Below are positions 1,177-32,184 of a stretch of DNA of 64,000 bases, one piece after another. A program made the translations under genes and the position numbers. Source of the DNA: Bdellovibrionales bacterium (lineage in GTDB: Bacteria; Bdellovibrionota; Bdellovibrionia; Bdellovibrionales; JAGQZY01). Under the pieces are notes generated by a model that saw nothing but the letters and a program-made list of their open reading frames with translations, was not told the DNA's origin and ran no database searches. The stretch lies in the NCBI GenBank assembly GCA_964230645.1, contig CAXRHT010000002.1, positions 864,395 to 928,394 on the forward strand, given 5' to 3'. Within the stretch, counting starts at the first letter, position 1. The number at the start of each line of letters is the position of its first letter.

Positions 1177-2436
1177 TTGAAAAAGCTTCTATTTAGCCTC
1201 TATTTGTGCTTACTTTTACCAACTTTTGCTTGGGCACAACAAACTAAAGTGTATTACGCCGTTCGCGGTAAGAAACCTCAGCTCCTTAGAACAAAGTCGG
1301 TCAACCGATGGTCTTGGAAAGAGCCAACTGAGGGAAAACCAAGGATGGTTAACGAAACTCTGTTTGCCCTACCAGGAAATACAATTCGAAACACTGTGAA
1401 ATCTAAGTATGGAGAGGCTCAACTCAAAGGTGGTGGGAAAAAGCTTTTTCTCTCAAGCCACTACCTTACCAACATGGTTTTAGTCTCAGATGGTCAAAGG
1501 AAAGAGAAGTTTTTCATAAAAACAAAATTAGAAAAAAAGCGGATCAGCAATGGCTGCGAGGAGTCTTATCTAATCCTACAGGCCAAAGATGGCAACGAGT
1601 TCCCTGGACCTTTAGGAACTTTCTGTAAAAAGCAAAATGACTCCACTCTCTTTTCTGTGGCGTTTCCTGGAGAGGTCAATTGGTCTGGATCCACTCTTTT
1701 TGAAACAGAAGGTAAAGGAGAAAGCTGGAAGGTTTATGAAATAAGCGAGGCTCAAAGCCAGTCCGGTGGCAAGATTGGCAACTTCTCGGTTCAATATAAA
1801 AATAAAACTTATGAGTACGAACTGCTCTCAAACTATTCTAAAAGTCAGGCTCAAAATGATTCCGAATCCAATCGTTATCAACTTCTGGTTGGAAATGTCA
1901 GTCTCACGGCAAAGGACGCCACCTCCGAGGCCTCTGAAAGTCCTTTCTTTGTAGGTGGACGCTTTCTATCCCGCCCTATTTTTAGCTCTTTACGCTTAGG
2001 AGTGGATTTCAATATCTCTCAATCTTTCAACTCTGACCCTCAAAATCAGCCTCTTAACTACAAAGAGTTCCGTGCTTTCGCCGGTTATGGCCTTTTAGGA
2101 GGAGACTTTGAAATAGCTCCACGAATTTACACCATATTTGCAGACGCAAGTAATCCGAATTCGGGCCTCAAAATGGTGCATCAGCACTTAGGCCTGGGCT
2201 TGGCCTTCATTTTAAAGCTCGGCCCTGACTTTAGAACTCACTTCGTCTATCTACAGAGTGGATTCCTTGGCTCGGTACCGACGACTCACTCCAGTCTGCA
2301 GTTCGAGGCCGCCTATAATTTCGGTGGATTTGAAGCGGGGTTTGGGATCGAAATGAACGACTATGGCTACGAGACACAAACCCGTGGCAATCCCGAGTTC
2401 ACTCAGGCCATTTACTACCTAAGTTTAGGATTCTAG
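1177..2436 (+). CDS. Secreted protein with probable C-terminal outer-membrane beta-barrel (family unknown)
   Basis: Track ORF with TTG start. Signal peptide MKKLLFSLYLCLLLPTFAWA/QQ. The last ~170 aa show alternating hydrophobic strands and end in YYLSLGF, an aromatic C-terminus typical of OM barrels. Confidence 0.6.
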   Translation: MKKLLFSLYLCLLLPTFAWAQQTKVYYAVRGKKPQLLRTKSVNRWSWKEPTEGKPRMVNETLFALPGNTIRNTVKSKYGEAQLKGGGKKLFLSSHYLTNMVLVSDGQRKEKFFIKTKLEKKRISNGCEESYLILQAKDGNEFPGPLGTFCKKQNDSTLFSVAFPGEVNWSGSTLFETEGKGESWKVYEISEAQSQSGGKIGNFSVQYKNKTYEYELLSNYSKSQAQNDSESNRYQLLVGNVSLTAKDATSEASESPFFVGGRFLSRPIFSSLRLGVDFNISQSFNSDPQNQPLNYKEFRAFAGYGLLGGDFEIAPRIYTIFADASNPNSGLKMVHQHLGLGLAFILKLGPDFRTHFVYLQSGFLGSVPTTHSSLQFEAAYNFGGFEAGFGIEMNDYGYETQTRGNPEFTQAIYYLSLGF

Positions 2437-2579
2437 ACTTACCTCACCTCATTTTCTCTCAATGAAAACCCTTTAAAAAATAGACCAAAGAAGGGGGCTT
2501 TTTAGCCTCTTCTTTCCCATTTAAACTTGAAAAAAAAACGCAGTGTTCCGATGGGTTATCTATACACAAAGGAAAAAAG

Positions 2580-3011
2580 ATGGGTGCTAAAAATGTTTGG
2601 GTGATTGGTCGCGATTCCGATTGCGATATCGTAATTAACAGCAAAAACGTCAGCCGTCGACAGGCAGAGATTCACCAAAGTGAAAATATTTTCTTTCTCA
2701 TTAATCACTCTAAACATAAAACCTCCTTTTTAAAAAGAGGAGAGCAAAAAATCCAGGTGGAACGGACTCGTTTAAAAGAAGGAGACCTTCTCTTTTTTGC
2801 TAACGAGGGTCCTTTCGAGTTTGAGTCCTTAATTGACAGTGACCGAACAGTTATTGATTTCAACCCTTTAAGCGGTGAAGACAGTCTGCAAACCACAGAT
2901 CCTGGTAGTGTTGACTTCCAAAAGTATGTGGAAAAAAAGCGATGTTCAGCTTGCGCCACGATTGTCGCTAAAAACGAGAGTCAGTGTCCTGAGTGTGGGA
3001 GCATGATATGA
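2580..3011 (+). CDS. FHA domain protein with C-terminal zinc ribbon
   Basis: FHA-like core VWVIGRDSDCDIVINSKNVSRRQAEI...GDLLFF. C-terminal CSAC-x10-CPEC. The stop overlaps the next start (ATGA at 3008-3011). Confidence 0.8.
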   Translation: MGAKNVWVIGRDSDCDIVINSKNVSRRQAEIHQSENIFFLINHSKHKTSFLKRGEQKIQVERTRLKEGDLLFFANEGPFEFESLIDSDRTVIDFNPLSGEDSLQTTDPGSVDFQKYVEKKRCSACATIVAKNESQCPECGSMI

Positions 3012-3838
3012 GCGCCGCAAAAAAAATAATCGATAAATTTCGTCCAAAGAAGAAGTCTTACAACCTTCCACGCATGGAGGTAAACAATCATATCGAAGGG
3101 TATTCCTTTTTTGATTATGTCGAGCCTTATACCCTTGGGATCATATTTACTTTGTGTGCTGTCTTAGCGATCCATTTAACCGGTGAGAGCTATATCAAGT
3201 CTATGGCTACAGGCGGAAAGTCCTTCCCGTTCACCTTTCAAGGACTTATGTGGCTTGTTATGGGAATTGGTATCGGAACCCTCTGTTTCAAATACGCTCG
3301 TATCAAAGAAAAAAGAGAAAGTTTTCAAATCGACTGCTTCCCCAGGGACCCACACCTTATTTTAGATTCAAAAGAGATTGCCAAAATTCGCCTTAAATTA
3401 AAAATTTATGATCGCGATCACAGTGCTGTTTTTCCGCGAGTCACCACGAAGGTATTAACCAAGTATCAAACCAATAAGTCGGTTGAGGAAGCCCAATCCA
3501 TGCTAGCTTCTCAAGTTGATATCATGTCTCAACGCTCAGACACCGAATACAACAGTTTGAGATACTACTCATGGCTTCTACCTTCGCTAGGATTCATGGG
3601 CACGGTTTACGGAATCTCAGAAGCCGTAGCGGTGGTTGGTCAGTCAACCCCTGATGATCCAGATCTTTTAAAGAATGTGGCCGTCAGTCTCGCAGTGGCT
3701 TTTGACACGACTCTTTTGTCTTTAATTCAAAGTTCTGTAATTCTCTTTTTTATGAACAAGCTTGAATCTCGCGAGGAAAAGCTCAATGTCGCTATTGAAG
3801 AGCGCATCGTCGATGAAGTTATCAGTAGGTTGAAATAG
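3008..3838 (+). CDS. MotA/TolQ/ExbB-family proton-channel protein
   Basis: Four hydrophobic segments. The C-terminal half has the family-type motif LLPSLGFMGTVYGISEAV ... SLAVAFDTTLLSLIQS. The track gives a GTG start at 2993. I prefer ATG 3008 because of the ATGA overlap with the FHA stop. Confidence 0.75.
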   Translation: MSAAKKIIDKFRPKKKSYNLPRMEVNNHIEGYSFFDYVEPYTLGIIFTLCAVLAIHLTGESYIKSMATGGKSFPFTFQGLMWLVMGIGIGTLCFKYARIKEKRESFQIDCFPRDPHLILDSKEIAKIRLKLKIYDRDHSAVFPRVTTKVLTKYQTNKSVEEAQSMLASQVDIMSQRSDTEYNSLRYYSWLLPSLGFMGTVYGISEAVAVVGQSTPDDPDLLKNVAVSLAVAFDTTLLSLIQSSVILFFMNKLESREEKLNVAIEERIVDEVISRLK

Positions 3839-4948
3839 ATGGCTCGAAAGAAAAAGAACCGTGACATCAATGTTTTTAGTGCCTCGGCGATCGATCTTTT
3901 CGCCTCGTCCATGGGCGTATTTATCATTCTTGTTGTTGTTTTATTTCCTTATTTTGGCAACAAATCCAAAATCGAACTCTCCAAGTCAGACACAGAGAGC
4001 ATTAAAAGCCTTGAGACCTTCAAAACACGGGTTAAGAAACAAGAAAAAGTGATTAGCTCTAAAAATGCTAAAATTAAAGAGATTCAAAAAAAGTTGGAAC
4101 AATTGACCGAGAGTGTTCAATCAAGTTCACAAAACCAGAATCAACAAATTAGCTCGCAGCAGGAAAAGATCTCTGAACTGAAGAAGAAACTCGAAGACGC
4201 TCAATCACAGCTTTCCTCAAACTCCTCTCTTGAAGAAATTTTAGAAAAAAAGAATGATACTATTACAAAGCTTGAGACAGAAAGTAACAGCAAAAACAAG
4301 AAAATCTCCAAACTTGAACAAGAAATACAAAGCTTAAAAGAAGTAAGTCAGCGAGCGCTCGCTTCTGTAAAGGATTCCCAATCCATGTCGACACAAGTCT
4401 CTTCTCTTCAAAAAGCCTTGGAGGCTATGAAAGATGAAGTGAAAAAACAAAAAGCCAGCCAAGCCAACAGTAGTCAAACAATCACAGATCTAAAAGAAAA
4501 GCTTGAAAAAGAGAAATCTTTTAGCAGCTCGCTTGAACAAAAGCTTAAGAAAAACAAGGGCCAAGTGGATGGCAAATCCTTTTTAGCGGTTGTGATGAAA
4601 TGGTCCACAGAAAAGCATGATGTGGATCTTGTTCTCAAGGCTCCTGATGGGAAAGTTTTTGATTTTAAACATAAAAAATATGGCAATAGCTATGGGGAGT
4701 TCGTGCTTGATTCTCGCAGTGGACCGGGAGCTGAGGTATGGCAATCACAGCAACTCACACCAGGACGCTATACATTGACCTCAAAGCTCTACAACACTTA
4801 TGGTAACAACAAACCAGCAGAAGTTTCAGCCAGCCTTTTCACCAAAAAAGGGAAGATGGACATTCCCGCCTTCCAACTCTCCCCAAAAAAGAAAACCAAC
4901 TCCGTTTCTTTTGAAGTCGACAAAGAAGGAAAAATTCAGTTTTTCTAG
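3839..4948 (+). CDS. ExbD/TolR-like membrane anchor fused to a ~195-aa coiled coil and a C-terminal beta-rich domain
   Basis: N-terminus MARKKKNRDINVFSASAIDLFASSMGVFIILVVV resembles the ExbD/TolR N-terminal TM with its conserved Asp (E. coli ExbD DINVTPFIDVMLVLLIIF, from memory). Residues ~45-240 are E/K/Q/S/L-rich helix. Residues ~247-369 (HDVDLVLKAPDGKVF...SGPGAEVW...GRYTL) recall DUF2135/YfaP-type domains (from memory). ATG abuts the upstream stop. Confidence 0.6.
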   Translation: MARKKKNRDINVFSASAIDLFASSMGVFIILVVVLFPYFGNKSKIELSKSDTESIKSLETFKTRVKKQEKVISSKNAKIKEIQKKLEQLTESVQSSSQNQNQQISSQQEKISELKKKLEDAQSQLSSNSSLEEILEKKNDTITKLETESNSKNKKISKLEQEIQSLKEVSQRALASVKDSQSMSTQVSSLQKALEAMKDEVKKQKASQANSSQTITDLKEKLEKEKSFSSSLEQKLKKNKGQVDGKSFLAVVMKWSTEKHDVDLVLKAPDGKVFDFKHKKYGNSYGEFVLDSRSGPGAEVWQSQQLTPGRYTLTSKLYNTYGNNKPAEVSASLFTKKGKMDIPAFQLSPKKKTNSVSFEVDKEGKIQFF

Positions 4949-6418
4949 CTAGCGGTGAACAACACCCACTTCTCCTCCCCCCAAAGCTTTGAAGAGAAAA
5001 ATATTATTGCGAATATAGCTTTGCTTGATTTGAATATACTTTGTTTGGGCTTCATAAAGGGAACGGCGAGAATCAAGGCTCACAAGATAACTATCAACTC
5101 CTGAGCGATAACGAAGATCACTAAGCTCAGAGGTTTTTTGAGCGGCTTTAACCACTCTTTGCTGAGCATTGATCTGTTTTTTATAATTTTTCTTTGAAAT
5201 AAGGCCGCTGGCCACTTCGCGGAAAGCCTCTTGGATGGAGTATTCGTAATTAAGTATGCTTTTTTTCTTTCTAATTTTACTCACCTCAAGCCTCGACATA
5301 TTTTGTCCCCAGGTAAAAATTGGTAAATTCACTCGCGGGATAAAACTCCAAGACTGAGAGCGTTCTTCAAAAAGATTATCGAGTTGTGTTGATGACCAAC
5401 CTGCCCGGGTGGTCAATTGGATGGAGGGGAAAAAGGCCGCACGTGCTGCTCCAATGCGAGCATTTTCAGCCAACAACTGATGTTCCGCCTGCCTGATATC
5501 GGGCCTAGCTAGTAGGACCATGGAGGAAAGGTTTTCGGGCAAATTGCGGGTTAATTTTGTGGAATCCTCCAAACTTTGTGGCTTCGGAAGTTCTGTGAGC
5601 GGCTCTCCCACTAGAACGGAGAGGTTTTGTTTGTTAATGGCCGCCAGTCGTTTTCTTTCCAAGACATCAGTTTTAAGGTTTTCGAGCAGGGTTTCCGCTT
5701 GGCGCAGTTCAATTTCTGAAACGACTTTCTGCTTCCAACGCTTTTCAATAATGCCAACAACCTGGGACTGCAAACTCACCGTCTCCTCAGCCAATCTTTG
5801 CAACTCTAGATTGGTCATATAATTGAGATACTCGCTACTCACATCAGCAATTAAGGCGATTCGCTGGCTCGCTTGAACATCGTGACTGGCCAAATATTCG
5901 TGAAGAACAGCCCTCTTAAGACTTCGAATCTTTCCAAAAAAGTCGATCTCATAGGAAGTTAACCCAACTGATAAATTGTACTGATTTTGGATAAATCCCG
6001 TGGGTTGTCCCCCTCCAGCCGAGCCGAAAAGTCCACCTTGTCCAAGAGCATTGCCAGGGATTTTTTGCCTTCTCATTTCCCCTTGCAGATCGAGGTTTGG
6101 AAACAATTCGCTTTTTTGAATGTCATACTGCTCTTCCAGCTCCAAGGTATCAAGGACGCGGCTTAGATATTGTCGGTTATTCCTCAAACTTTTTGATATC
6201 AGTTTTTTCAAGAGTCGATCTTTATAAAAGTTCTTCCAATTAAAACCTTTCAGTTGTTTGCGAAGAGTCTTATTTTGCCCTTTGTTCTCAGAGATAAAAC
6301 TTTTCTCCACCGGCATTTCTGGCTCAGGCCTTTCCGGAGCCAATGTACAACTGGTAAATAAAACAAAAAGAAAAGATAAGAAAAGACGGTTATTCACTGC
6401 CATCCTCCACCGTCTCAA
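4949..6418 (-). CDS. RND efflux outer-membrane factor lipoprotein (NodT/TolC family)
   Basis: Lipobox LFTSC. Length and sequence are typical of OMF proteins. The start overlaps the stop of the RND pump gene. ATG 6403 is an alternative start. Confidence 0.9.
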   Translation of the reverse strand: MRRWRMAVNNRLFLSFLFVLFTSCTLAPERPEPEMPVEKSFISENKGQNKTLRKQLKGFNWKNFYKDRLLKKLISKSLRNNRQYLSRVLDTLELEEQYDIQKSELFPNLDLQGEMRRQKIPGNALGQGGLFGSAGGGQPTGFIQNQYNLSVGLTSYEIDFFGKIRSLKRAVLHEYLASHDVQASQRIALIADVSSEYLNYMTNLELQRLAEETVSLQSQVVGIIEKRWKQKVVSEIELRQAETLLENLKTDVLERKRLAAINKQNLSVLVGEPLTELPKPQSLEDSTKLTRNLPENLSSMVLLARPDIRQAEHQLLAENARIGAARAAFFPSIQLTTRAGWSSTQLDNLFEERSQSWSFIPRVNLPIFTWGQNMSRLEVSKIRKKKSILNYEYSIQEAFREVASGLISKKNYKKQINAQQRVVKAAQKTSELSDLRYRSGVDSYLVSLDSRRSLYEAQTKYIQIKQSYIRNNIFLFKALGGGEVGVVHR

Positions 6419-9400
6419 TATTTCTATTTATAAAAAGAAAGAATAGGGGCGCAAAAAATATAACCAGTAAGGTCGTTGATAGTATTCCGCCCACGAGACT
6501 GAATCCAATGGATTGCTGAGCCCCAGAGCCTGGTCCAGAAGCAAAAACAAGAGGTAAAACTCCAAGTAAAAATGTAAAGGAGGTCATAAGGATGGGGCGA
6601 AACCTCTGTTGACTGGCTTGCATGATGGCGTCCATCATGCACTTGCCTTCTTTGATGGCGGTGATAGCAAACTCTACAATCAGAATGGCATTTTTTGCAG
6701 CCAGCCCCATTGCTAAAAGAATTCCGACTTTAAAATAGACATCATTGGTTTGACCAGATACCAGTGAAAGCAGTGCTGCGCCCACAATCCCCATGGGAAT
6801 CGTTAAAATAATCGCAAAAGGAATAGCCCAGCTCTCATAAAGAGCGGCTAGACTTAGAAAAATAGCTAGTACGGTAATCATATAGAGATAATAAACTTGA
6901 TCGCCTGACTGCTGCTCTTCATAAGACAGACCCACCCACTCAACAGAAAGGCTCTCTTTAAAATTATCCGCCACTTTCATTATTCGCTCCATAGCATCTC
7001 CAGTAGAGAAGCCAGGGCTCGCCTGACCTTGGATAGGAAGAGCGGCGCTTCCATTAAACCTTTCCACTTGGGGAGGACCGTAGTCCCAATAGCCTTTTGA
7101 AAAATCAGAGAAAGAAACCATGGCACCCGACTGAGAGCGAACGTACCAGTCTCCAAGATCACCGGGCTTCATTCTAAAAGGAGCATCCCCTTGCACGAAA
7201 ACTCTTTTCACTCGGTCTTTTTCAATAAAGTCATTCACGTACTGGGTTCCCCAAGCCGCGCTCAGAGTCTCATTCACACTGGCCACACTCACCCCCAGTG
7301 CTTTGGCCTTTTCGTAATCAATATTGATTTTGTATTGAGGGGAATTACCGAGTGAATTAAAACGGCTATAGGATATCTCAGGAGATTGGTTGAGTTGTGC
7401 TAGAAACTCATCTTTGACCTCCACTAAATTTTCCCGACCTTGCCCGGTACGGTCCACCAATTGAAACTCAAAACCTGTAGCACGACCAAGGTCTCTTATA
7501 GGAGGAGGAACGATCACAGTGATCTTAGCGTCACGAATAGCAGAGAGCTCTTTTCTCGCCATATCAGCTATTTCAAAAATGGAAATAAAGGGACCCTCCC
7601 TCTCATCATAGGGAACGGTATGAACAAAGCCAATGGCAGCGTTTTGCCCCGAACCACTGAAGCTAAAACCTCTGACCGTAAAGATATCTTTGATCGAACC
7701 TGACAATCGATCCGCCAGGAAAAAGTCCTCAACTTTTGAAATTGGTTTTTTCATTTCTTCAAAGGTTGCCGTAGGTGGACCTTCTAAAAGGACATAAATA
7801 TTTCCTTGATCCTCGTTGGGAAGAAAAGCGCTGGGAAGATTGAAAAAGCAAAGGCCGATTAAAATGATAACGGCAAGAAAGCTTAAAAAAGCGAGTTTGG
7901 TATGATTGAGAAAATATTTTAACCATTTTTCATAGGTGTTTTTGCTTTTATCATAGGCTGAGTTAAACCAACCAAACCACTTAGACTCACCCATGGACTC
8001 TTTTTTCTTAAAAAGTGTGGCGCAAAGAGAAGGGGTAAAGGTTAAGGCCACAAAAAGAGACAAAGTCATCGCCGAAATCAGTGTCACAGCAAATTGTTTG
8101 TAAATCACTCCCGTCGATCCTGCAAAAAGCAGCATGGGAACGAAAACGGCCCATAGCACAACGGTTGTACCCACGAGGGCACCCGTAAGTTCTTTCATCG
8201 AGTTGTAAGCGGCTTGTTTGGAATCAAGCTCGGAGTCTTCCTCAAGGGACCTTTTAATGTTCTCTGTCACAACGATGGCATCATCCACAAGAAGACCAAT
8301 AGCTAAAACAAGTGCAAAAAGAGTTAATATGTTAATGGAATATTGAAAAAACCAGAGGCTTGCAAACGTCCCAAGGATCACCACGGGTATGGCAATACCT
8401 GGTACAAGTGTTGACCTTATGTTTTGTAAAAACACATACATTACGGCAATCACTAAAAACATCGCCAAAACTAAGGTGATGACCACCTCCCAAATTGAGG
8501 CTCTGATAAAGGGGGTCACGTCCACGGGATAAGCAATTTTTAAATCTTTTGGAAATGTGGGTTCAAGCTCTTTAAGCCTTTCCTTGATCAGGTCCACTGT
8601 CTCAAGGGCGTTGGCATCAGAGGCTAGACTCACTCCAAAACCAGAGGCAGGTTTTCTTTTATACCGTCTAATCGATGAGTAATTTTCAGCACCAATCTCC
8701 ACTCGTGCAATATCCCCCACCCGCACCGATTCTCCATTGGGCAAAGTTCGCAGAAGGATGTTTTCAAACTGCTCTCTAGTGGAAAAAAGACTTTGCGAGG
8801 TCACAGTGGCATTGATTTTCTGCCCTTCAACGGCTGGAGCCGCTCCGATTTGGCCCGAGGCCACCTGATTGTTTTGAGCTCTTACGGCATTGATAACATC
8901 TGTTGCTGTGAGCTTATAGTTAAAAAGCTCCCTTGGATTGAGCCAGATTCTTAAGGCGTGTTGGGGGGCAAAGGCGTTGATTCTTCCTACACCCTTGATA
9001 CGACCGATGGGTTCCACCAAGTTGGAAGCCACAAAATCTCCGATCTCGGTGTCATCCATTTTACTCCCTGGAGAGTAGGCCGCCACAACCACGGCGTAAA
9101 AGCCCGAGGACTTCTCAACGGGGATTCCAAGTTGTCTCACCTGTGCAGGAAGGTTGGAAAGAGCTTGCGAGAGTTTGTTTTGAGTTTGAACTTGCGCGAT
9201 ATCTGGGTTGGCATCGATATCAAAAGTAAGTCTAATTTCTGCACGCCCTGAGGAGGAGCTTGATGACTGGATGTAGCGTAAATTATCAATGGCTATGAGA
9301 TTTTGTTCAATACGCTGAGTGATTGTTTTATCGATCGTCTCTGCTGAGGCTCCAGGATAATTAGCGTTGATTGATACTTGGGGTGGTGCCACTGAAGGGT

Positions 9401-9506
9401 ACGGCTGAATGGGAAGATTGGGAACCGCTAGCAGGCCTAACCCCATTATCGTAATGGCAAGAACCCACGTGAAAATCGGATGGTCGATAAAAAACTTTGA
9501 GAACAT
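6390..9506 (-). CDS. RND multidrug efflux permease (AcrB/HAE1 type)
   Basis: 1038 aa. Begins MFSKFFIDHPIFTWVLAI. Has the 12-TM RND layout and an LLVDDAIVVTENI motif. Confidence 0.95.
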   Translation of the reverse strand: MFSKFFIDHPIFTWVLAITIMGLGLLAVPNLPIQPYPSVAPPQVSINANYPGASAETIDKTITQRIEQNLIAIDNLRYIQSSSSSSGRAEIRLTFDIDANPDIAQVQTQNKLSQALSNLPAQVRQLGIPVEKSSGFYAVVVAAYSPGSKMDDTEIGDFVASNLVEPIGRIKGVGRINAFAPQHALRIWLNPRELFNYKLTATDVINAVRAQNNQVASGQIGAAPAVEGQKINATVTSQSLFSTREQFENILLRTLPNGESVRVGDIARVEIGAENYSSIRRYKRKPASGFGVSLASDANALETVDLIKERLKELEPTFPKDLKIAYPVDVTPFIRASIWEVVITLVLAMFLVIAVMYVFLQNIRSTLVPGIAIPVVILGTFASLWFFQYSINILTLFALVLAIGLLVDDAIVVTENIKRSLEEDSELDSKQAAYNSMKELTGALVGTTVVLWAVFVPMLLFAGSTGVIYKQFAVTLISAMTLSLFVALTFTPSLCATLFKKKESMGESKWFGWFNSAYDKSKNTYEKWLKYFLNHTKLAFLSFLAVIILIGLCFFNLPSAFLPNEDQGNIYVLLEGPPTATFEEMKKPISKVEDFFLADRLSGSIKDIFTVRGFSFSGSGQNAAIGFVHTVPYDEREGPFISIFEIADMARKELSAIRDAKITVIVPPPIRDLGRATGFEFQLVDRTGQGRENLVEVKDEFLAQLNQSPEISYSRFNSLGNSPQYKINIDYEKAKALGVSVASVNETLSAAWGTQYVNDFIEKDRVKRVFVQGDAPFRMKPGDLGDWYVRSQSGAMVSFSDFSKGYWDYGPPQVERFNGSAALPIQGQASPGFSTGDAMERIMKVADNFKESLSVEWVGLSYEEQQSGDQVYYLYMITVLAIFLSLAALYESWAIPFAIILTIPMGIVGAALLSLVSGQTNDVYFKVGILLAMGLAAKNAILIVEFAITAIKEGKCMMDAIMQASQQRFRPILMTSFTFLLGVLPLVFASGPGSGAQQSIGFSLVGGILSTTLLVIFFAPLFFLFINRNIETVEDGSE

Positions 9507-9509
9507 AAA

Positions 9510-10757
9510 CTAGACAACCACCCTGTGGTTTGAAAAAGAGGCGCGCGACTCTTTTGGGTCTTTTTTAGGCTGAAGCTTCTTTTTGATTTCCCCTTGTTTT
9601 TTAGGAGTCGTTTTGCTCTCTGTGACCGGTTCTACCAGGGCCCCATCTTTGAGATTGAATAAATTGTCTAAAGCCACCCGCTCCCCCTGGGAGAGACCAC
9701 TTTCGATCACCCAAAAATCATTGCGTAAGCCACCGGTCTGAACCCTTTTTTCAGAAACCCGGTTTTTCTTATCGATCACCCAAACCCAAGCCTGTCCGTT
9801 GGCTTTTCGGGTGATAGCTCTTTGAGGAACAAGTAATTTTTTTGTCTTCCCAAGCTCCTCAATATAGGCATTAACAAACATACCCGGAAGTAAAACCAGT
9901 TCCGGGTTAGGAACCACAGCTCTTAAATCAATACTGCCACTTTCTTCATTCACTGCGAGTTCGGCCACCTCTAACTTTCCCTTTCGGTCATAAAAGCGAT
10001 CACTGCCCTCAATCTTAATGGAAACTGTCAATCCATCTGTTTTCTTTGATTTAAGATCAAAAGCACCATCGGACTGCTCCCTCCAAGAAAGGACTTCTTT
10101 TAAGGGCTGAGAGATATCAACATAAACAGGATCTAAAGACCGAATGGTGGCTAACTTTTGGCTTTGTTGTGAGGAAACGAGTGCACCCTTGGTGACCTCC
10201 GATTTTCCAATGTATCCGGAGATGGGAGCTAAAACTTTGGTGTACTTGAGATTAATTTCCGCTTGTTGCACCTCGGCCTGAGCAATTTGCATGCTGGCTT
10301 GAATCTCGCCAAACTTAGCCATCGTATCATCAAGTTCCTGCTGACTAATGGCGTTTTGTTTCACCAGGGTTTTATATCGACGAACTAAAGATTGAGTGGC
10401 TTTATAGCTGGCGCGAGCACGAGCCAACCGACCTTTTGCTGCCTTTAAAGCGGCATCATACCGAGCTGGGTCGATTTGATAGAGCTGCTCGCCTTCTTCC
10501 ACGTAGACTCCCTCTTTAAAGAGTCGATCTTGGATAATGCCATCGACTTGAGGACGAATCTCAGCAATTTTATGGGGGCGAACACGCCCCACAAGGGCTT
10601 CTGAAACAGAGATGCCTTTTCTATCCACTACTGCCCAGCTGACTTTTACAGCTTCTTGATTGGCCGCTTCGGGAGATTGACCTGACTCTGAGGAACAGTG
10701 ACAAAGCAGGAGAAAAAGTAAAGTCGAACAACTTATGGCAAATTTAGATGGCTTCAT
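9510..10757 (-). CDS. RND efflux periplasmic adaptor (membrane fusion protein)
   Basis: AcrA/HlyD-type sequence with a coiled-coil hairpin region (AQAEVQQAEINLKYTKVLAPISGYIG). Signal or lipoprotein-like N-terminus. ATG 10757 is preferred over the track TTG at 10778. Confidence 0.9.
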   Translation of the reverse strand: MKPSKFAISCSTLLFLLLCHCSSESGQSPEAANQEAVKVSWAVVDRKGISVSEALVGRVRPHKIAEIRPQVDGIIQDRLFKEGVYVEEGEQLYQIDPARYDAALKAAKGRLARARASYKATQSLVRRYKTLVKQNAISQQELDDTMAKFGEIQASMQIAQAEVQQAEINLKYTKVLAPISGYIGKSEVTKGALVSSQQSQKLATIRSLDPVYVDISQPLKEVLSWREQSDGAFDLKSKKTDGLTVSIKIEGSDRFYDRKGKLEVAELAVNEESGSIDLRAVVPNPELVLLPGMFVNAYIEELGKTKKLLVPQRAITRKANGQAWVWVIDKKNRVSEKRVQTGGLRNDFWVIESGLSQGERVALDNLFNLKDGALVEPVTESKTTPKKQGEIKKKLQPKKDPKESRASFSNHRVVV

Positions 10758-10908
10758 GATTAACCTTATTAGGGGCAAAACTTTAAGTTAACAAGGAGAG
10801 TCTTAAAACTCCTACCCCATATATGTATAGAACGTGCAGAAATGTTCAAGAATTCTTAATCAAATCCGGCTTACACCCACCCAATGGGTCTCGCAGGATA
10901 TCATGACC

Positions 10909-23398: not shown

Positions 23399-25693
23399 CT
23401 AAAGTGTGGCCTCTTTCCATGGCGGATCACTGAGATTATTCGTCTTTTCGTGAATGATCTTATAGAGCAAGTAGTTTCTCATAACCGCTTTCACATAAAA
23501 ACTCGTTTCAGCCCATGGTAGCTCGTCCATCCAAATATCATCTTCAGGACTGGCTCCAATCTTTTTCCACTCCTCGTCCAAGGCGTCACGGTGATCGAGC
23601 CATCGATCCAAATTGCCAGGCCCCACGTTGTAGGAGGCCACCGCAAGAGGAACGATTTTATTATATTTGCCAACCATTCTGGATATAAAATGGGTCCCAA
23701 AGCGAATATTCACCTCGGGCTTAAAAATATCAGGGACAGTACGAAATCTTTTAACCCGCAACCACTTGGCTGTTTCTTTTGCTGTGGGAGAAAGAAGCTG
23801 CATCAGACCGTAAGCTTTTGAAGGGCTAATGGCTCGCCTCATGAAAGCACTTTCTTGCCTCATAATTGCCCACACTAGATTTCGTGAAATATTAAATTCT
23901 TTTTCAGCCGCCTTAACCTCTTTTTCATAATGAGTGGGAAAGGATTCTTTTAAAAAATCCCGGCTGATAAAATCCAGATTAATATCGATGGCTGAGGCGT
24001 AGTCCCCTATGGCTCGGTTTTCTCTCAAGGCGGCTCTCCACAGCTTGGCCCTTACTAAAAAACCACCGGCAGTTTGAGGGTCAGGCAGGAAATCAATCTC
24101 GGTTTCGGCTTCGTCCACCCAACCATAGGAGAGGAGATTTTCAATACGCTTCCAGCGTTCTTTATTGTTCTCTGGCCACCAGTACTGAGTTTGAAATTCC
24201 TCTTTGGAATCAGAAAGAAGATTTTGCAAACCTTTTTTCTCTTCCATACGAACAATTAGCCCGTAGTAGGTTAACGGAAATGTTTTGAAAATAGATTCGG
24301 CAATGTTACTTGATCGATCAGAGCCAATCTTTTTTAAAGAGCGCCAAAGCCAGTAGCGCACTTGCAATTCATATTTGTCAGAACCTTCATGCAAAAGGAA
24401 GCGGTCATACACATTGACGACCGATTTGTATTCCTTCTCCCTAAAATAAAGGAGACCTAAGAAGTACTGAGCCTCGTAACTGGCCTCAGTCCCCGAATAC
24501 TTCTCTTTGAGCTTTTTAAAATAGGACTTTGCCTCAGAAATTTTTCCCAAATAGTAGGCCGAGCGTCCGGCCATCATCATGGCATCTGCCGCCAAAGGAG
24601 AATCCTCCCACTTTTCAGCGGCCGCATCAGCCAAATTGTAGCTTGATTCCTGGTAGCCACGCTCATAAGCATCCGTAGCCCAATGAAAAATAGCAGAGGC
24701 AGGAGCTTCTTTTAATTTGCTTTCAAAGTCTCTTTTTGCCGAACGATATTTAGCGCCTCGGCGGTAAAGAAGTCTCTTATAAAAGCGACTGACCTTGGCT
24801 AAAACTTTCTTAACCCTCTCTGACCCAGGGTATTCGTTTAAAAACTCAACTCCATAGCGAGCCACATTGTAGGATTGTCCTTTTTTCGCCGCACCGGAAA
24901 ACTGTCTCCAGAGTTTTTTCTCTCCGGCCGTCTGATTAAGATCAAGTGAGTATTTGTCGGTCTTTAGAACACCACTCGCCTTTAAGGATTTCAGCCTTGC
25001 AAGAACTGAGCTCTTCTCTTTAAACCGGTAACTTCGAATAAAATTAGCAATGGCTATCTCATTTTTTTTGTTGAGCCAGGCGTACTCCCCCATAATTTCA
25101 TAATAAAAAGCGCGCTGCTTTTCATCCATATAATCGAGAAGATCGTTGTGTTGATCAATAAATGAGCCTAACTCACTTCGCGCTTTATTCAGAGCCGTTT
25201 GCGCTAAGTCTAAAAATAAATCTAAAAACCTTTTTCGATGATCCGGATAAGGGGAATTGAGAAGGGAAACCTTATTTTTTGCTAAAACTTTAAAGGATTT
25301 TAAAAATCGGCTCGCCTTCCACGAAGAGCGCCTTTTATGCAAAGAGTTCAAACAACTCAAATGAGTCTCAGAAATCCAAACTCCAAGTCTTTTATTATCA
25401 GAATTCTTCTCTGCCAACTCCACACAGTTTTCAAACTGACTTTTTAACTGATACCACTTTAACTTTGAAAGCTCCCTTATTTTTTTTGCATTCTTATGTT
25501 CGTGCAAATCTATGGCTTTTTTGAAATCTTTTTTATAGGAAAACTCTTTGGTGTCTAAACCTAAGGCCTTAGGACTTGAGAGGCTAAAAAACAAAACTCC
25601 AAAAAGAATTGGTAACATCAAATACCAAATTCGGTTTCGGTTAAGTCTCCTGGTCTTTTTTCTTACGTCGTTTTTTACTATCAAAATCTTCAT
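23399..25693 (-). CDS. Soluble lytic murein transglycosylase (Slt70-like) with long helical-repeat N-domain
   Basis: C-terminal SLT motifs AIMRQESAF, AYGLMQL, ASYNVGPGN. TPR-like repeats lie upstream. ATG 25618 (MLPILFGVLFFSLSS) is an alternative start that would remove the overlap with batD. Confidence 0.85.
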   Translation of the reverse strand: MKILIVKNDVRKKTRRLNRNRIWYLMLPILFGVLFFSLSSPKALGLDTKEFSYKKDFKKAIDLHEHKNAKKIRELSKLKWYQLKSQFENCVELAEKNSDNKRLGVWISETHLSCLNSLHKRRSSWKASRFLKSFKVLAKNKVSLLNSPYPDHRKRFLDLFLDLAQTALNKARSELGSFIDQHNDLLDYMDEKQRAFYYEIMGEYAWLNKKNEIAIANFIRSYRFKEKSSVLARLKSLKASGVLKTDKYSLDLNQTAGEKKLWRQFSGAAKKGQSYNVARYGVEFLNEYPGSERVKKVLAKVSRFYKRLLYRRGAKYRSAKRDFESKLKEAPASAIFHWATDAYERGYQESSYNLADAAAEKWEDSPLAADAMMMAGRSAYYLGKISEAKSYFKKLKEKYSGTEASYEAQYFLGLLYFREKEYKSVVNVYDRFLLHEGSDKYELQVRYWLWRSLKKIGSDRSSNIAESIFKTFPLTYYGLIVRMEEKKGLQNLLSDSKEEFQTQYWWPENNKERWKRIENLLSYGWVDEAETEIDFLPDPQTAGGFLVRAKLWRAALRENRAIGDYASAIDINLDFISRDFLKESFPTHYEKEVKAAEKEFNISRNLVWAIMRQESAFMRRAISPSKAYGLMQLLSPTAKETAKWLRVKRFRTVPDIFKPEVNIRFGTHFISRMVGKYNKIVPLAVASYNVGPGNLDRWLDHRDALDEEWKKIGASPEDDIWMDELPWAETSFYVKAVMRNYLLYKIIHEKTNNLSDPPWKEATL

Positions 25694-27602
25694 TCCCTTT
25701 ACTTAATTGACAAGCCTTTAGAAGCAAGGATTTTAATTCTTTCACCCTAGCTTCAAGCCCCTTAGTATCTTTAAAGTCTTTCAGGTAGGAGGTGGGTCCA
25801 AATCCAAGCACGCCAAAGAATTCCATTAGTTTTTTAAGAGGCTCTTCAATTTCTCGGCGCACACTCGGATCCGTCTTAGTCAGAACTTTTTCGAGCTGTT
25901 CGTTTGAGCCCCCCTCACCAGTAAGATCACCAAGAACTCTGTAAACTGTGTTGGTCGCTTCAATACCCACGGCCCGAATCTTGTTTTTACTCAAATGCTT
26001 ATCGATTTTAGAAAAACGGGCGGCAATCACTTCTTCTGTGGTCGGATTTTTAATCAACCACCCAGCATCTTTAATAAGCTTTCCTAACGCCAAAAGAAGA
26101 GCGAGAGCATATAGAATAAACCAGTAGTGATACTTGCTTGAACGAGCTACAAAATCAGGGTTCCACTCATTAACAAGACCGGGCAAAATAATTTCTTTTT
26201 CATTAGCCTTGAGCCGCTCTTCCCCAATGGACTGCTGTTTTGAGCCAGGGAGAACTTGCAGCTCTATGGGATCTGACTCCATCAAAACATACTCCCTTTT
26301 TTTAGGATCAAAATAACTGGATTTTAAACCCTCAATTTTCAAAGGGCCTGGTTTATTGGGAATCAAAAGAACTTCAAACTCCTTAAAGCTCTGACCGTTC
26401 TTAAAAAATTGTGACTCATTCTTAATGTCGTATATTTCTAGATTATCACTTAAAGGGAGTTCTGGAAGCTCAATCAGCTTCGCGTTGCCTCGCCCTTCAA
26501 AACGCACTCTTAATGGAAAAGGCTGATGGGTAATGATCGACTGGCTTGGAGCATCGACCGTCATCTGAAACTCTCCCACCGCTCCGGCAAAATTTCCTGG
26601 TTTACCTTCTTCAGGAAGAGGTTTTACAAGGATGGGTATATTATCGCTGGACTTTGTCGCCTGGTGACCTCGCCCAAAACCAAAACCACCAACGATAGTG
26701 GCTTTAGCTTTATAGGGATCAATTTTCCTTTTCCCCTCTTCGATTGGAAAAAGAGCGTAGGAAGCTAAAAGGGCGCGGCTGTAGGGAACGCCATTGATAA
26801 CATCCTGCTCGAAGTTGAGATGAGTGGCGATTTGAATGTCTTCCTTCCAAAATCCTTTTAGCGTTGGATATTTTAAGGTGTCGATGTCACGCACTCGGCC
26901 TCTTGTGTAGAGATACCAGGAGGCTAAAATTTGCTCGCCTTTATAGGCCTCTGTTTTATCGACTTCCGCGATGATAAAAAAGGCGTCTTTTCCCGTAGGG
27001 GGTTCGGTTTGAAAACCTCCACCAGGAACTCCGCCGAACTGACGGCGTAAAAGTTGATTGAACATCTCTTCGGCTTCTGCGAAGGGATCATCTGGTTCTG
27101 TAGGAAAGGGATTAGCCCCTCCTTGCCCAGGAACCTGGCGTCTTCTCTGCGGCCGTTGTGCCTGAGGGCGCCCTTGGCCCGCTGCTAACACTGCAATTTG
27201 AATGGGTTTTGTCTGATAGGTTTTACCACCCACTTCTACACGAATGGGATCAATATTCACCGTCCCCTCTTCCATGGGGGTGTATTGATAGCTATAAATT
27301 TTTGAGTTCACTGTTTTAAAATCAATCCCCTGGCCTGTGCTAACAACGGTGGAGCGTGATTGACTGCTCGTCCAGGAATGAAGCAATTGAACATTTTCAA
27401 TGGTGGGAAGACTCGGTGGAGTGACAGGAGCACTTTTCTCGGAATCAACGCTCACTTTTAAGGTGAAATTACCACCCACCGGAACTTGATTTCGATCCAC
27501 AGTCGCCTGAACTGAAACTTGGGCCTGAGCATTTGAAACAAAACCCATCAGCAGAAAGGAAAGTATGAGAACGGAGGGGCACCAGTTACCAATCCTTTTC
27601 AC
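25641..27602 (-). CDS. batD: BatD-like oxygen-tolerance protein
   Basis: Signal peptide, two repeated beta-rich regions, one late TM and a basic tail. It sits downstream of batA-C. Confidence 0.75.
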   Translation of the reverse strand: MKRIGNWCPSVLILSFLLMGFVSNAQAQVSVQATVDRNQVPVGGNFTLKVSVDSEKSAPVTPPSLPTIENVQLLHSWTSSQSRSTVVSTGQGIDFKTVNSKIYSYQYTPMEEGTVNIDPIRVEVGGKTYQTKPIQIAVLAAGQGRPQAQRPQRRRQVPGQGGANPFPTEPDDPFAEAEEMFNQLLRRQFGGVPGGGFQTEPPTGKDAFFIIAEVDKTEAYKGEQILASWYLYTRGRVRDIDTLKYPTLKGFWKEDIQIATHLNFEQDVINGVPYSRALLASYALFPIEEGKRKIDPYKAKATIVGGFGFGRGHQATKSSDNIPILVKPLPEEGKPGNFAGAVGEFQMTVDAPSQSIITHQPFPLRVRFEGRGNAKLIELPELPLSDNLEIYDIKNESQFFKNGQSFKEFEVLLIPNKPGPLKIEGLKSSYFDPKKREYVLMESDPIELQVLPGSKQQSIGEERLKANEKEIILPGLVNEWNPDFVARSSKYHYWFILYALALLLALGKLIKDAGWLIKNPTTEEVIAARFSKIDKHLSKNKIRAVGIEATNTVYRVLGDLTGEGGSNEQLEKVLTKTDPSVRREIEEPLKKLMEFFGVLGFGPTSYLKDFKDTKGLEARVKELKSLLLKACQLSKGNEDFDSKKRRKKKDQET

Positions 27603-28281
27603 GATCAGCCTCCCTTTTTCCCTTTCTTTCGTGTTTTGCTCGGATTTTCTGTTCTTGTTTTTTCAACTCTTCAAGAATCTTTTTAACATCCCCTTTGGAC
27701 ATTTCTTTACTTTTAAACTGATTGGGTTGAGGTTTATTGGTGAACTTCTGAGGTTCTTTGGGCTGATCTTCGCCCTCACCCTCTTTTGACTGCTCTTTCT
27801 TATCCCCTTTACCTTTACCCTTACCGCTTTGAAAGAGAAGCTCGATATTTGTTTTCACCTCTTTTGAATCAGGGCGCACGTTAAGAGCCAGTTGATAATA
27901 CTCCAAAGCCTTATCAATACCGTCACTGAATTCCTTAAGGGAGTAAAGAACACCCAAGTTAAAATAGGTGGCAAACTCGATTTCAGGGGGCAGAGGTTTT
28001 TGCTTAAGAATCTCCTCATACATTTGCACGGCTTTTTTCTTCTCTTCAGTGGCAATAAATGAAAACCCCATATTGTATTGAAAAATGGGATTAAAAGGGT
28101 CTTCGGTTAAGAGCTGAGTGAGCTCCTCTTGAGCTTCCAATGATTTTTTATCCTCAAGGTAGTTGACCGCTTGGTTATTATTCCAGATATCAAAAACATC
28201 CATGGAGGCTAGCCCCTGAGAGCTTGCAAACAAGACAGGCATAATCAGTAAGCCAAATTTTCCATACGAAGTGTTAGCCAT
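27586..28281 (-). CDS. batC: BatC-like TPR protein with K/E-rich tail
   Basis: TPR-like helices (FNLGVLYSLKEFSDGIDKALEYYQLAL). Operon position is between batB and batD. Confidence 0.65.
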   Translation of the reverse strand: MANTSYGKFGLLIMPVLFASSQGLASMDVFDIWNNNQAVNYLEDKKSLEAQEELTQLLTEDPFNPIFQYNMGFSFIATEEKKKAVQMYEEILKQKPLPPEIEFATYFNLGVLYSLKEFSDGIDKALEYYQLALNVRPDSKEVKTNIELLFQSGKGKGKGDKKEQSKEGEGEDQPKEPQKFTNKPQPNQFKSKEMSKGDVKKILEELKKQEQKIRAKHERKGKREADREKDW

Positions 28282-29335
28282 GGGAGACGAACCTTCCTTT
28301 CCAATTCTTTAATTTCTTTTTACGAGTACCGATAAAGAGTTCCACCAGAGCCAACAAGAAGGCTAGAAATAGTGGAAGTTGGTACTTTTCATCAAAACTC
28401 TCCTGAGAAATAGAGTCAAACTCTGACTTTTCAAGTTTATCAAGGTCTTCTTTGAGTCGTTTCATCTGAGAGCCACCAAAAGTGACATGATAAAAACTTC
28501 CTTTACCGGCTCTAGCGATTTCTTTCATCGACTCCGCGTTCACTTTTGTGATCACTTCATTGTTATTGTTATCTTTCACGTAGCCTTTTAAGTAGCCTCT
28601 TGAATCTCTTTTAGGAATTTTCCCACCTCGCTCAGAGCCAAAAGCCATGGTAAAAACCCTCACTCCTGATTCCACCAAGGTTTTAGCGGCGGTCACAGCG
28701 CCTTCCTCATGATCTTCTCCATCGGAAATGAGAATCACCACACGAGTCATAGATTCCTTCGGCCCCACATTCTCACCGCCTCTTTTAAAAGCTTCTTTGG
28801 CTTCATTGAGGGCTTTAGCAAGCTCTGTCCCTTGTGTTTCTACACTTTGTGGCGAAAGAGTTTCTAAAAACATTTTAAGGGCGGATTTATCAGTGGTCAT
28901 GGGAGAGAGTAAAACGGCCGAACCAGCAAAAGCTAAAATCCCCACCTTATCACCCCCAAGAATATTGAGAAGATGATTGATTTCTTTTTTGGCGTGCTCA
29001 AGACGCGAGGGCTTTACATCCTCGGAGAGCATACTCTTTGAGACATCAATGGCCACCATAAGCTCCACACCACGGCTTGTGATTTGGCGCTTACCTTTAC
29101 CCATTTGCGGCCTGGCTAGAGCAATGATCATAAAAGCCAGTGCGAGGCTCACCAAAATGAACTTCAGGTTACGGCGCACATGGGAGAACTGATCCGTAAA
29201 AAAACCAAAAAGCTTCGGGCCAAAGGCTTTCTTAAGGCGTGACTCAATTCTTTTGTTATTGATCACAAAGTAAAGGGCCAAAAGACCAAGAAGGATGAAG
29301 GCAAAGAAAAAAGACTCATTAGCAAAACGAAACAT
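28274..29335 (-). CDS. batB: BatB-like vWA-domain membrane protein
   Basis: MFRFANESFFF start, two TMs, and the vWA MIDAS motif AIDVSKSM. Confidence 0.85.
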   Translation of the reverse strand: MFRFANESFFFAFILLGLLALYFVINNKRIESRLKKAFGPKLFGFFTDQFSHVRRNLKFILVSLALAFMIIALARPQMGKGKRQITSRGVELMVAIDVSKSMLSEDVKPSRLEHAKKEINHLLNILGGDKVGILAFAGSAVLLSPMTTDKSALKMFLETLSPQSVETQGTELAKALNEAKEAFKRGGENVGPKESMTRVVILISDGEDHEEGAVTAAKTLVESGVRVFTMAFGSERGGKIPKRDSRGYLKGYVKDNNNNEVITKVNAESMKEIARAGKGSFYHVTFGGSQMKRLKEDLDKLEKSEFDSISQESFDEKYQLPLFLAFLLALVELFIGTRKKKLKNWKGRFVSHG

Positions 29336-29336
29336 C

Positions 29337-31309: not shown

Positions 31310-32184
31310 CCCTTCCTCTTTTTAAAGTAGTTGGCAAGAGGCTGAATAAAATCCTCACCATTGATGACTTCAATAAGATCCACCCGTGACTTTCGAAGCT
31401 CGGAACTCACATGCTCGTAATAATCTTGAAAACCTTTGGTGTAGTATTTTTTAAAAAGTGGAGAAGAAGTATCAAGTGTTATAAGGTCTCCCGTCTCGGG
31501 ATCGACAAAATCCACCATGCCGATGGCGGGAATGCGCTCTTCCACAGGATCAGAAATTTGCACAGCGATTGTTTCATGACGCCTGTTCAACCGTTTTAAA
31601 GCTGTGGCAAAAGGCTCTGGGTCCATAAAGTCGCTAAAAAGAAAAACGGTTCCTCGTTTTTTCAAAACACCGGAGAGGTACTCAACGACCGAGGAAATAT
31701 TGGTGCGCTTGCTTTTAGGCTCATGGTAGTAAAGGTCGCGAAGAATTCTTTGAATGTGTCCACGTCCCTTTTTGGGAGGCACAAAATGCTCCACTTGATC
31801 AGAAAAAAGTAAGAGACCTACATTGTCACTGTTTTTTGAAGCACTAAAACCAAGAAGAGCGGAAAGATGGGTTAACACTTCACCTTTAAAGTAATCTTCA
31901 GAACCAAAGTGAACCGAGCCACTCACATCCACTGCAAGAATAAGAGTAAGCTCACGCTCCTCCTCATACTTCTTGATATATGTGTTCCCCGTGCGCGCTG
32001 TTAAATTCCACGAAATGGATCGAACATCATCACCGGGCACATACTCTCTGAAATCAGAAAAAGTCATACCCTGACCTTTAAAAGCCGAGTGGTAAGCTCC
32101 AGCGAATGTGGAGTTCACCAGCTTTTTCGTACTGATCTCAAGCAGTTTAATTTTTTTTAGAACCTCAGCTGGTATGGACAACAA
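31306..32184 (-). CDS. DUF58-domain protein (vWA-like, MoxR partner)
   Basis: FREYVPGDDVRSISWNLTAR motif typical of DUF58. 4-nt overlap with the next gene. Confidence 0.85.
   Translation of the reverse strand: MLSIPAEVLKKIKLLEISTKKLVNSTFAGAYHSAFKGQGMTFSDFREYVPGDDVRSISWNLTARTGNTYIKKYEEERELTLILAVDVSGSVHFGSEDYFKGEVLTHLSALLGFSASKNSDNVGLLLFSDQVEHFVPPKKGRGHIQRILRDLYYHEPKSKRTNISSVVEYLSGVLKKRGTVFLFSDFMDPEPFATALKRLNRRHETIAVQISDPVEERIPAIGMVDFVDPETGDLITLDTSSPLFKKYYTKGFQDYYEHVSSELRKSRVDLIEVINGEDFIQPLANYFKKRKG

Follow-up and report, generated by a model that had tools for sequence, protein, structure and literature searches.

The four genes and their products

A group of four genes on the forward strand of a Bdellovibrionales genome, which may encode an ion-driven motor that reaches across the cell envelope, is the subject of this analysis. 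The genes lie at 1177-4948 of a stretch of 64,000 nucleotides (contig CAXRHT010000002.1 of assembly GCA_964230645.1, positions 864,395 to 928,394), hereafter called the window, and all positions are counted from its first letter. An earlier note, made from the sequence alone, had proposed four open reading frames here, and all four were confirmed on the + strand: gene 1 (1177-2436), encoding an outer-membrane protein; gene 2 (2580-3011), encoding a cytoplasmic protein with an FHA domain and a zinc ribbon; gene 3 (3008-3838, with its ATG at 3008), encoding a channel subunit of the MotA/ExbB/TolQ family; and gene 4 (3839-4948), encoding the presumed dimeric B subunit. The G+C content is even across the region.

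The junctions of the last three genes are those expected for translational coupling, as the note had suggested: in an ATGA at 3008-3011 the stop of gene 2 overlaps the start of gene 3, and the stop codon of gene 3 (TAG, 3836-3838) abuts the ATG of gene 4 at 3839 with zero gap. Gene 1 and gene 2 are separated by 143 bases (2437-2579, + strand, read directly from the sequence) that hold a GC-rich hairpin, GAAGGGGGCTTTTTAGCCTCTTC, at about 2490-2515, so that gene 1 is probably transcribed apart from the operon of genes 2-4. The hairpin, which a consensus scan did not call, is likely to be the terminator of gene 1, and the same region is likely to hold the promoter of the operon. In related loci, homologues of gene 1 are found on either side of the module and on either strand. 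The proposed cluster of four genes thus stands as far as the genes themselves are concerned, with gene 1 probably a separate transcript and with a neighbourhood that extends to the left of 1177, as described below.

Gene 3 encodes a member of the MotA/ExbB/TolQ proton-channel superfamily. It matches MotA_ExbB (PF01618) with an E value of 7.6e-12 and 45.5 bits against a cut-off of 22.9, and it has the four hydrophobic segments that had been claimed for it, three of which are at or above the hydropathy threshold and the fourth of which is identified by the alignment as the conserved P-x-LGF-GTV-GI helix. An AF-TTL motif is also conserved in the alignment, and P192, G195, G198, T199 and T234/T235, which form the P-x-x-G-x-x-G-T and T-T motifs, are invariant in 10 homologues. 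The protein ends about 25 residues past its last helix and has no long cytoplasmic tail. Against the NCBIfam equivalogs TolQ, PomA and MotA it scores about 21 bits or less, with cut-offs of 221-403.

The product of gene 4 consists of a membrane anchor (3878-3955, residues 14-39), a helical stalk that is presumably a coiled coil (3983-4555, residues 49-239) and a beta-sandwich head domain (4571-4945, residues 245-369), all on the + strand. A short basic N-tail is followed by a strongly hydrophobic helix (residues 18-36, hydropathy 2.54) that contains Asp19 (codon 3893-3895). The surrounding motif, NVFS(T/A)SAIDLFASSxGVF, is the most conserved stretch outside the head, and S16, D19, G26 and F28 are invariant in the alignment, its MotB-type member included. 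An AlphaFold2 model made from a 14-sequence alignment places a membrane helix at residues 14-39 and two further helices at 49-123 and 129-239, the latter two with a predicted local distance difference test (pLDDT) score of 70-87. At the textbook rise of 0.15 nm per residue, a stalk of about 190-208 helical residues, as in the window, would span roughly 28-31 nm as a coiled coil.

The head is modelled as a beta sandwich at residues 249-368, within a domain of ~125 residues, with pLDDT >90. It carries the motif W-x-T-x-K-H-D-x-D-L ... L-D-S-R-x-G-P-G-x-E ... Y-N-x-Y-G-N. Foldseek found no significant fold match for it in the PDB (E at or above 1e-3; the top weak ones were the EnvC coiled coil, DUF4425 and MmpS5), a PDB profile search gave no match either, and a weak similarity of DUF2135 to 2 of 13 members (best E 0.002) is a lead only. 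Searches of Pfam, NCBIfam and PADLOC with gene 4 returned only coiled-coil noise, and coiled-coil matches to SMC, Rad50 and JetC were rejected as an effect of composition.

The product of gene 1 begins with a signal sequence (MKKLLFSLYLCLLLPTFAWA/QQ) and ends in ...LSLGF. Its AlphaFold2 model, from an 81-sequence alignment, has a mean pLDDT of 94.4 and a predicted template modelling score of 0.75; it shows beta domains at residues 23-218, followed by ten long strands at 233-418 with pLDDT >90, and with Foldseek these strands match the 10-strand OpcA and Pla and the 8-strand NspA (E about 1e-5). The protein, described in the earlier note as secreted and barrel-like with a terminal Phe, is accordingly predicted, with high confidence, to form an outer-membrane barrel of 10 strands, preceded by a signal peptide and by periplasmic beta domains. 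The features typical of such barrels are all present, namely a signal peptide, an even number of strands and a C-terminal aromatic residue, and F or Y stands at or next to the C-terminus in 12 of 12 aligned homologues. Since both ends of an even-stranded outer-membrane barrel face the periplasm, the N-terminal domains of ~200 residues should be periplasmic. These domains carry an invariant pair of cysteines (Cys127/Cys150) and a G-K-G-E motif, both common to the 12 aligned homologues. No Pfam or NCBIfam family matches gene 1, and an exhaustive representative search found 145 representatives of its family among 1.84 billion proteins; a word-indexed search gave only 2-3 matches.

In gene 2 both proposed domains were found. 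The FHA domain (residues 7-71) matches PF00498 with an E value of 1.9e-14 and 54.3 bits against a cut-off of 20.7, and carries the G-R and S-R-R-Q motifs with the phosphate-binding Arg and Ser. It is followed towards the C-terminus by a CxxC...CxxC zinc ribbon (residues 120-140), to which zinc-ribbon families match weakly.

Conservation of the module and the pairing of anchor and channel

The family is small. A search of 5.8 billion clustered proteins with gene 4 gave only 17 relatives, and full-length relatives of it, about 16 at one genome scanned per species, are restricted to metagenome-assembled genomes of Bdellovibrionota. The nearest ones, in genomes of Bdellovibrionales and Pseudobdellovibrionaceae, share 70-72% identity in gene 3 and 42-44% in gene 4. 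All four genes occur together in about 11 loci of Bdellovibrionota, and in all main-clade loci with enough DNA the order FHA gene, gene-3 type, gene-4 type is kept, with a homologue of gene 1 adjacent; in 10 of the Bdellovibrionota loci the gene immediately before that of the channel encodes the FHA protein. In a divergent subclade of Bdellovibrionaceae (L017, L018 and L022) the genes follow the order barrel, channel, anchor-stalk-head, and the head motif has changed to S-D-A-R-x-G-P-G. Isolate DT_12 has two copies in the same genome, a lone homologue of gene 4 without an adjacent channel gene (L010) and a full FHA-channel-anchor set without a nearby barrel (L020), in which a 579-residue protein has a stalk of about 417 residues.

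The anchor motif together with a coiled coil was also found outside this group, in the vWA-headed relatives P0015-P0017 and in about 50 gammaproteobacterial loci (L024-L074), mostly of Lysobacterales, which contain two tandem anchor-coil-vWA genes, an FHA gene, in most loci directly upstream of the channel gene, and a homologue of gene 3 with ~30% identity. The trio of FHA, channel and anchor genes, the conservation of which the earlier note had proposed to check, is thus kept in the main-clade Bdellovibrionota loci and in about 50 Gammaproteobacteria.

Stronger evidence on the role of gene 4 than that of profile searches comes from relatives in Bdellovibrionota with a sister architecture (P0014, L013, L015, L016, L019, L021 and L023), in which a stalk of this kind and the head of gene 4 are joined to a canonical MotB_plug N-terminus (...W-L-V-S-Y-A-D-M-M-T-L-L-F-G-L-F...; PF13677 matched in P0014). 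Where the contig reaches, a canonical MotA gene lies just upstream of this form (L015, L016, L019 and L021; partial in L013), and a homologue of gene 1 and an S8 lipoprotein gene follow it in L016 and L023. In the loci inspected, the SAIDLFAS anchor never occurs with MotA and the YADMMT anchor never occurs with the gene-3 type. Anchor and channel therefore switch together while stalk and head stay constant, which would be expected if the anchor sits in the channel.

Further evidence comes from the neighbourhood. The anchor motif adjoins a homologue of gene 3 in 13 Bdellovibrionota and about 40 gammaproteobacterial loci. The cluster contains no ExbD/TolR/MotB-type gene, and BLAST with ExbD, TolR and MotB sequences found none elsewhere in the 64 kb. 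Both MAFFT and hhalign align Asp19 with the Asp of MotB and ExbD. This contextual evidence, i.e., the invariant Asp, the strict pairing, the lack of an alternative B gene and the MotB-type sister loci, supports gene 4 as the putative B subunit of the motor.

A link between the head and the barrel is suggested by the distribution of gene 1, the co-occurrence of which had also been proposed as a check. Its family adjoins head-domain proteins in 13 loci of both front-end types and vWA-headed relatives in 0 of about 50 loci, which points to a partnership of head and barrel. In addition, in the three loci where the stalk is shortest (L004, L007 and L012), the gene 1 homologue has a helical insert of ~50 residues between the periplasmic domain and the barrel, and the length of the stalk is inversely related to that of the insert-bearing segment (Spearman -0.74, P 0.006, n=12, not phylogeny-corrected). 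This signal, which comes mostly from one clade, is no more than suggestive of a compensation of length between the two proteins.

It should be noted that the conserved neighbourhood is larger than 1177-4948. In about 10 related Bdellovibrionota loci, the module is flanked by genes for Cys-rich repeat proteins and a giant S8 subtilase lipoprotein, and both kinds of protein occur beside both front-end types. The subtilases have 900-1200 residues and retain the catalytic G-T-S-x-A-x-P motif, and there are one to three Cys-rich repeat proteins, with 32-49 Cys, per locus; both have signal peptides ending in Cys and are therefore lipoprotein-like. The window itself contains the 5' part of such a Cys-rich gene at 1-1007 on the - strand (the start near 1007 is approximate), which is divergent from gene 1 and crosses the left edge. 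Its product combines a signal peptide and a lipobox-like LGAC with ~55-residue repeats and a region rich in Gly. Among its relatives are the repeat proteins of L001, L002 and L005, and it shares 41.5% identity over 301 residues with the 431-residue protein of L005. No Pfam family matches the Cys-rich repeat proteins.

On the other side, an RND efflux operon (4949-10778, - strand), with genes for an outer-membrane factor (OEP), an AcrB-type pump and an HlyD-type membrane-fusion protein, converges on gene 4 without a gap, gene 4 ending at 4948 and the efflux gene at 4949; it is unrelated to the motor module. Further into the window there is a Bat-like operon (25641-33189, - strand) with genes for a MoxR AAA ATPase, a DUF58 protein, two membrane vWA proteins, a TPR protein and BatD, which is followed by a gene for an SLT transglycosylase (23399-25693).

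Possible control by phosphorylation, and the comparison with known motors

The earlier note had raised the possibility of control by phospho-Thr, and this is supported indirectly, by the association of the FHA gene with the channel gene in two phyla and by the occurrence of PP2C and Ser/Thr kinase genes in relatives. The most explicit tie of the motor clade to Ser/Thr phosphorylation is the cluster of L006 (4839-14713), which contains, in this order, genes for an FHA protein, the channel, a 214-residue zinc-ribbon protein, PP2C, an anchor-vWA protein, a 162-residue protein, a trypsin-FHA protein and two protein kinases. By this evidence, the motor of the window would be a candidate for phospho-Thr control.

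The same observations could also be explained by a Zorya-like system of envelope surveillance or conflict, in which the head or vWA domain senses damage or invasion and the motor signals to the cytoplasm via FHA proteins and Ser/Thr phosphorylation, performing no work at the outer membrane. The gammaproteobacterial vWA clusters look like signalling or conflict systems, and one of them, L037 (4695-15174), adds another FHA protein (510 residues) and a protein in which a Ser/Thr kinase is joined to an FGE-sulfatase domain, with a CHAT protease gene opposite. This explanation would also account for the PP2C, the two kinases and the trypsin-FHA protein of L006, for the patchy and narrow distribution of the family and for the weak matches of gene 3 to ZorA in PADLOC (E 5e-4). 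However, these matches reflect the shared MotA_ExbB core, and the other proteins match no defence family. Zorya has a long cytoplasmic tail on its A subunit, a ZorB that binds peptidoglycan, and ZorC/D or other effectors; the pair in the window is similar in being divergent MotAB-like proteins with a very long coiled-coil extension, but the long tail of the A subunit, the peptidoglycan-binding B subunit and nuclease or helicase effectors are all missing. Furthermore, kinase and CHAT genes are missing from the window and from the Bdellovibrionota loci, where the form is tied to an outer-membrane barrel and lipoproteins instead. An explanation by surveillance thus seems unlikely. Membership in Zorya proper was rejected on a ZorA-core match of 16.9 bits in PADLOC, the short tail of gene 3 and the lack of effector genes, and PADLOC assigned none of the four products to a defence system.

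Less probable still, and in our view improbable, is a variant of the motility stators, in which the pair would power flagellar rotation or the movement of a gliding or adhesion complex and the stalk would replace the peptidoglycan-binding domain. The sister architecture does use a canonical MotA and a MotB plug-type N-terminus, and Cys-rich lipoproteins and barrels recall the Agl-Glt adhesion complex of Myxococcus, with its CglB adhesin and GltA/B/K barrels. There are also similarities between the window pair and MotAB/PomAB, namely the MotA_ExbB core and four helices of gene 3, an Asp near the cytoplasmic end of the single helix of the B subunit, and the order A then B. But gene 4 has neither the plug motif nor an OmpA-like peptidoglycan-binding domain, neither the window nor any of the loci inspected has flagellar or Glt/Agl genes beside the pair, gene 3 is nearer to TolQ/PomA-like cores only at E about 1e-4, and coupling to an FHA protein is not a feature of flagellar stators. 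Membership of gene 4 in the MotB stators was rejected because neither PF13677 nor PF00691 matches it.

The Ton and Tol systems, ExbBD-TonB and TolQR-TolA-Pal, are similar in that the energy of ions at the inner membrane would reach a protein of the outer membrane. They differ from the window in that gene 4 has no ExbD periplasmic domain, that TonB/TolA, TolB and Pal are missing, and that the transducer here would be the B subunit itself and not a third protein at the periphery of the ring. Membership in Ton was rejected since none of the four products matches TonB (PF03544) or ExbD and the module is flanked by a gene for a Cys-rich lipoprotein and by those of RND efflux; membership in Tol-Pal was rejected since no TolR, TolA, TolB or Pal gene lies beside gene 3, which scores 21 bits with the TolQ equivalog against a cut-off of 221. 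The N-tail motif of gene 4 before the Asp helix, (D/E)-I-N-V, resembles D-I-N-V-T-P...D in ExbD and E-I-N-I-V-P...D in TolR of E. coli. Nevertheless, gene 4 was rejected as a member of the ExbD/TolR family: PF02472 does not match at E up to 1 with the full protein or at E up to 10 with 11 N-terminal fragments, and the periplasmic part is a coiled coil with a beta sandwich. Of the ExbD/TolR-type anchor with a membrane Asp (AIDL) of the earlier note, the Asp is confirmed, as an invariant Asp19 in a membrane helix; the resemblance to ExbD/TolR has no statistical support in sequence comparisons, but the natural exchange with the MotB_plug N-terminus supports an equivalence of the two kinds of helix.

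In outline, the proposed complex would work most like GldLM/PorLM, the 5:2-type inner-membrane motor of gliding and type IX secretion in Bacteroidota, of which a dimeric subunit crosses the periplasm to an outer-membrane complex, as is proposed here for gene 4. GldM is, however, composed of globular domains and not of a coiled coil, and there is no type IX secretion gene context. Membership was rejected because genes 3 and 4 match neither GldL nor GldM families in Pfam and NCBIfam at E up to 1. Domain and window searches found no TonB, Pal/TolB, flagellar, OmpA-like or gliding gene adjacent, and the defining features of Ton, Tol-Pal, Mot/Pom, Gld/Por and Zorya are missing; the earlier note had placed the module outside these layouts, and profile searches, which assigned gene 3 to PF01618 and gene 2 to PF00498, led to no characterised named system.

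The evolutionarily closest systems are predicted motors in which a transpore helix (TPH) carries a vWA domain. A recent study (PMC12204202, Mol Biol Evol 2025) predicted TolQ-like genes without tolR/exbD that have as partners vWA proteins in heterologous pairs, equipped with an Asp-bearing transpore helix, and AlphaFold3 placed this helix inside a TolQ-like pentamer with the Asp in a Thr ring. The module in the window shares with the TPH-vWA motors a MotA/ExbB/TolQ gene without a tolR/exbD neighbour and a partner made of an Asp helix and a periplasmic domain, and its own anchor motif recurs with a coiled coil in P0015-P0017 and in the gammaproteobacterial loci, in the latter as tandem heterologous pairs. 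The closeness thus concerns the anchor, the channel clade and the FHA gene, which is conserved in both the vWA-headed and the beta-sandwich forms in the present analysis and is not mentioned in PMC12204202; the Idiomarina example of that study may belong to the anchor family of the window. The differences are that the head of gene 4 is a beta sandwich without a vWA match, that there is a single anchor gene, implying a homodimer instead of a heterologous pair, and that a dedicated barrel and S8/Cys-rich lipoproteins are neighbours in a system restricted to Bdellovibrionota. The non-canonical layout described in the earlier note is real, but related TolQ-like motors with Asp-bearing helix-vWA partners had already been predicted. 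Novelty lies in the beta-sandwich head, in having one anchor gene and a barrel of its own, in the lipoprotein/subtilase context, in the cross-phylum linkage to FHA and in the exchange of the front end for MotA/MotB. A literature search found no description of the Bdellovibrionota form and nothing specific on a system of FHA and MotA/ExbB proteins in Bdellovibrio.

A possible machine across the envelope

It appears reasonably probable that genes 3 and 4 encode an ion-driven stator-type complex of the MotAB/ExbBD/TolQR superfamily, the head of which docks on the gene 1 protein and which is under the control of the FHA protein. By analogy with the superfamily, five A subunits encoded by gene 3 would surround two B subunits encoded by gene 4, and ions would be coupled through Asp19. 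The B subunit, in which a short transpore helix with the Asp continues into a long dimeric coiled-coil stalk, would then also be the force transducer: the stalk would carry the beta-sandwich head across the periplasm, the most likely docking site of the head would be the periplasmic beta domains of the gene 1 protein, and the flow of ions at the inner membrane would be converted to rotation or pulling at the outer membrane. The target of the gene 2 protein would probably be either a phosphorylated partner or the gene-3 ring at its cytoplasmic face, and this protein would gate or localise the motor under the control of a Ser/Thr kinase. In related loci, the large subtilase lipoproteins and the Cys-rich repeat lipoproteins would be the likely clients. 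The 5:2 stoichiometry, the coupling of ions through Asp19, the contact of head and barrel, the target of the FHA domain and the nature of the output are all parts that we infer; the family of gene 3, the folds of gene 1 and of the gene 4 head, the conserved neighbourhood, the pairing of anchor and channel and the exchange with a MotA/MotB-type front end rest on the analysis itself.

A more specific proposal, possible but put forward tentatively, is that of a previously unrecognised trans-envelope machine of predatory Bdellovibrionota, in which the rotary unit turns or pulls a shaft plugged by its head into the barrel and thereby exposes, releases, moves or activates the giant subtilase and Cys-rich repeat lipoproteins at the cell surface. 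This machine would be switched by the FHA protein, and its output would have been captured independently by two stator lineages, one TolQ-like with FHA and one of the MotA/MotB type.

Several observations weigh against these proposals. In the N-terminus of gene 4, no profile match to ExbD, TolR or MotB was found in Pfam, NCBIfam and the PDB with the full length, fragments or profiles, and in an hhalign comparison with MotB-type and ExbD/TolR N-termini, those of E. coli included, the Asp was aligned with the Asp at P about 0.01 and a probability of about 3%. No solved structure of a MotA, TolQ, ExbB or PomA protein is close to gene 3 (best E 0.04 with the single sequence, 0.4 with a profile). 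The length of the stalk, 208 residues in the window, varies from 75 to 417 residues, i.e., more than five-fold, across the family, which argues against a simple fixed ruler of the periplasm, and the AlphaFold2 model has a break at residues 124-128, at which the stalk could fold back on itself as a hairpin. Ten strands give a barrel too small to conduct proteins on its own, and there is no barrel next to the head-domain loci L010, L014, L015, L019 and L020. As for control by phosphorylation, gene 2 has Gln in place of the usual His of S-x-x-H, which is present in most homologues, the FHA gene is missing upstream in the subclade of L017, L018 and L022, and there is no kinase or phosphatase within the window. 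In addition, residues 13-16 of gene 4 (3875-3886) read F-S-A-S in the window and its closest relatives and F-S-T-S in most members; if the Thr were the ligand of the FHA domain, the window copy, with Ala in its place, would have lost it.

The least probable explanation dispenses with a motor altogether, taking gene 4 as a passive coiled-coil tether or scaffold, gene 3 as a TolQ paralogue that uses a distant TolR/ExbD, and their adjacency as co-regulation only: it would fit an anchor without statistically significant similarity to ExbD/TolR/MotB and a stalk of poorly constrained length, but an Asp that never varies within a membrane helix would carry a cost if it had no function, the anchor and channel types switch together (SAIDLFAS with the gene-3 type, YADMMT with MotA), genes 3 and 4 are translationally coupled, and AlphaFold3 models have been published for the vWA relatives (PMC12204202), so that we regard it as very improbable.

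A stator-type complex of genes 3 and 4 would be of interest for several reasons. The ion-driven 5:2 motors with a known job are few, i.e., flagellar rotation, Ton uptake, Tol-Pal, gliding and type IX secretion, and Zorya defence, and each one that was newly understood opened a field. If true, a B subunit that is itself the transducer and has a defined outer-membrane partner would be a clean system for the question of rotation versus tension. A stator-linked FHA protein that is kept across two phyla points to control of the stator by phosphorylation, which to our knowledge has not been established for any known member of the superfamily. The presence of TolQ-like and MotA/MotB front ends on the same shaft and head is direct evidence of modular evolution. 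Finally, the link to large surface proteases could bear on the attack of prey by predatory bacteria.

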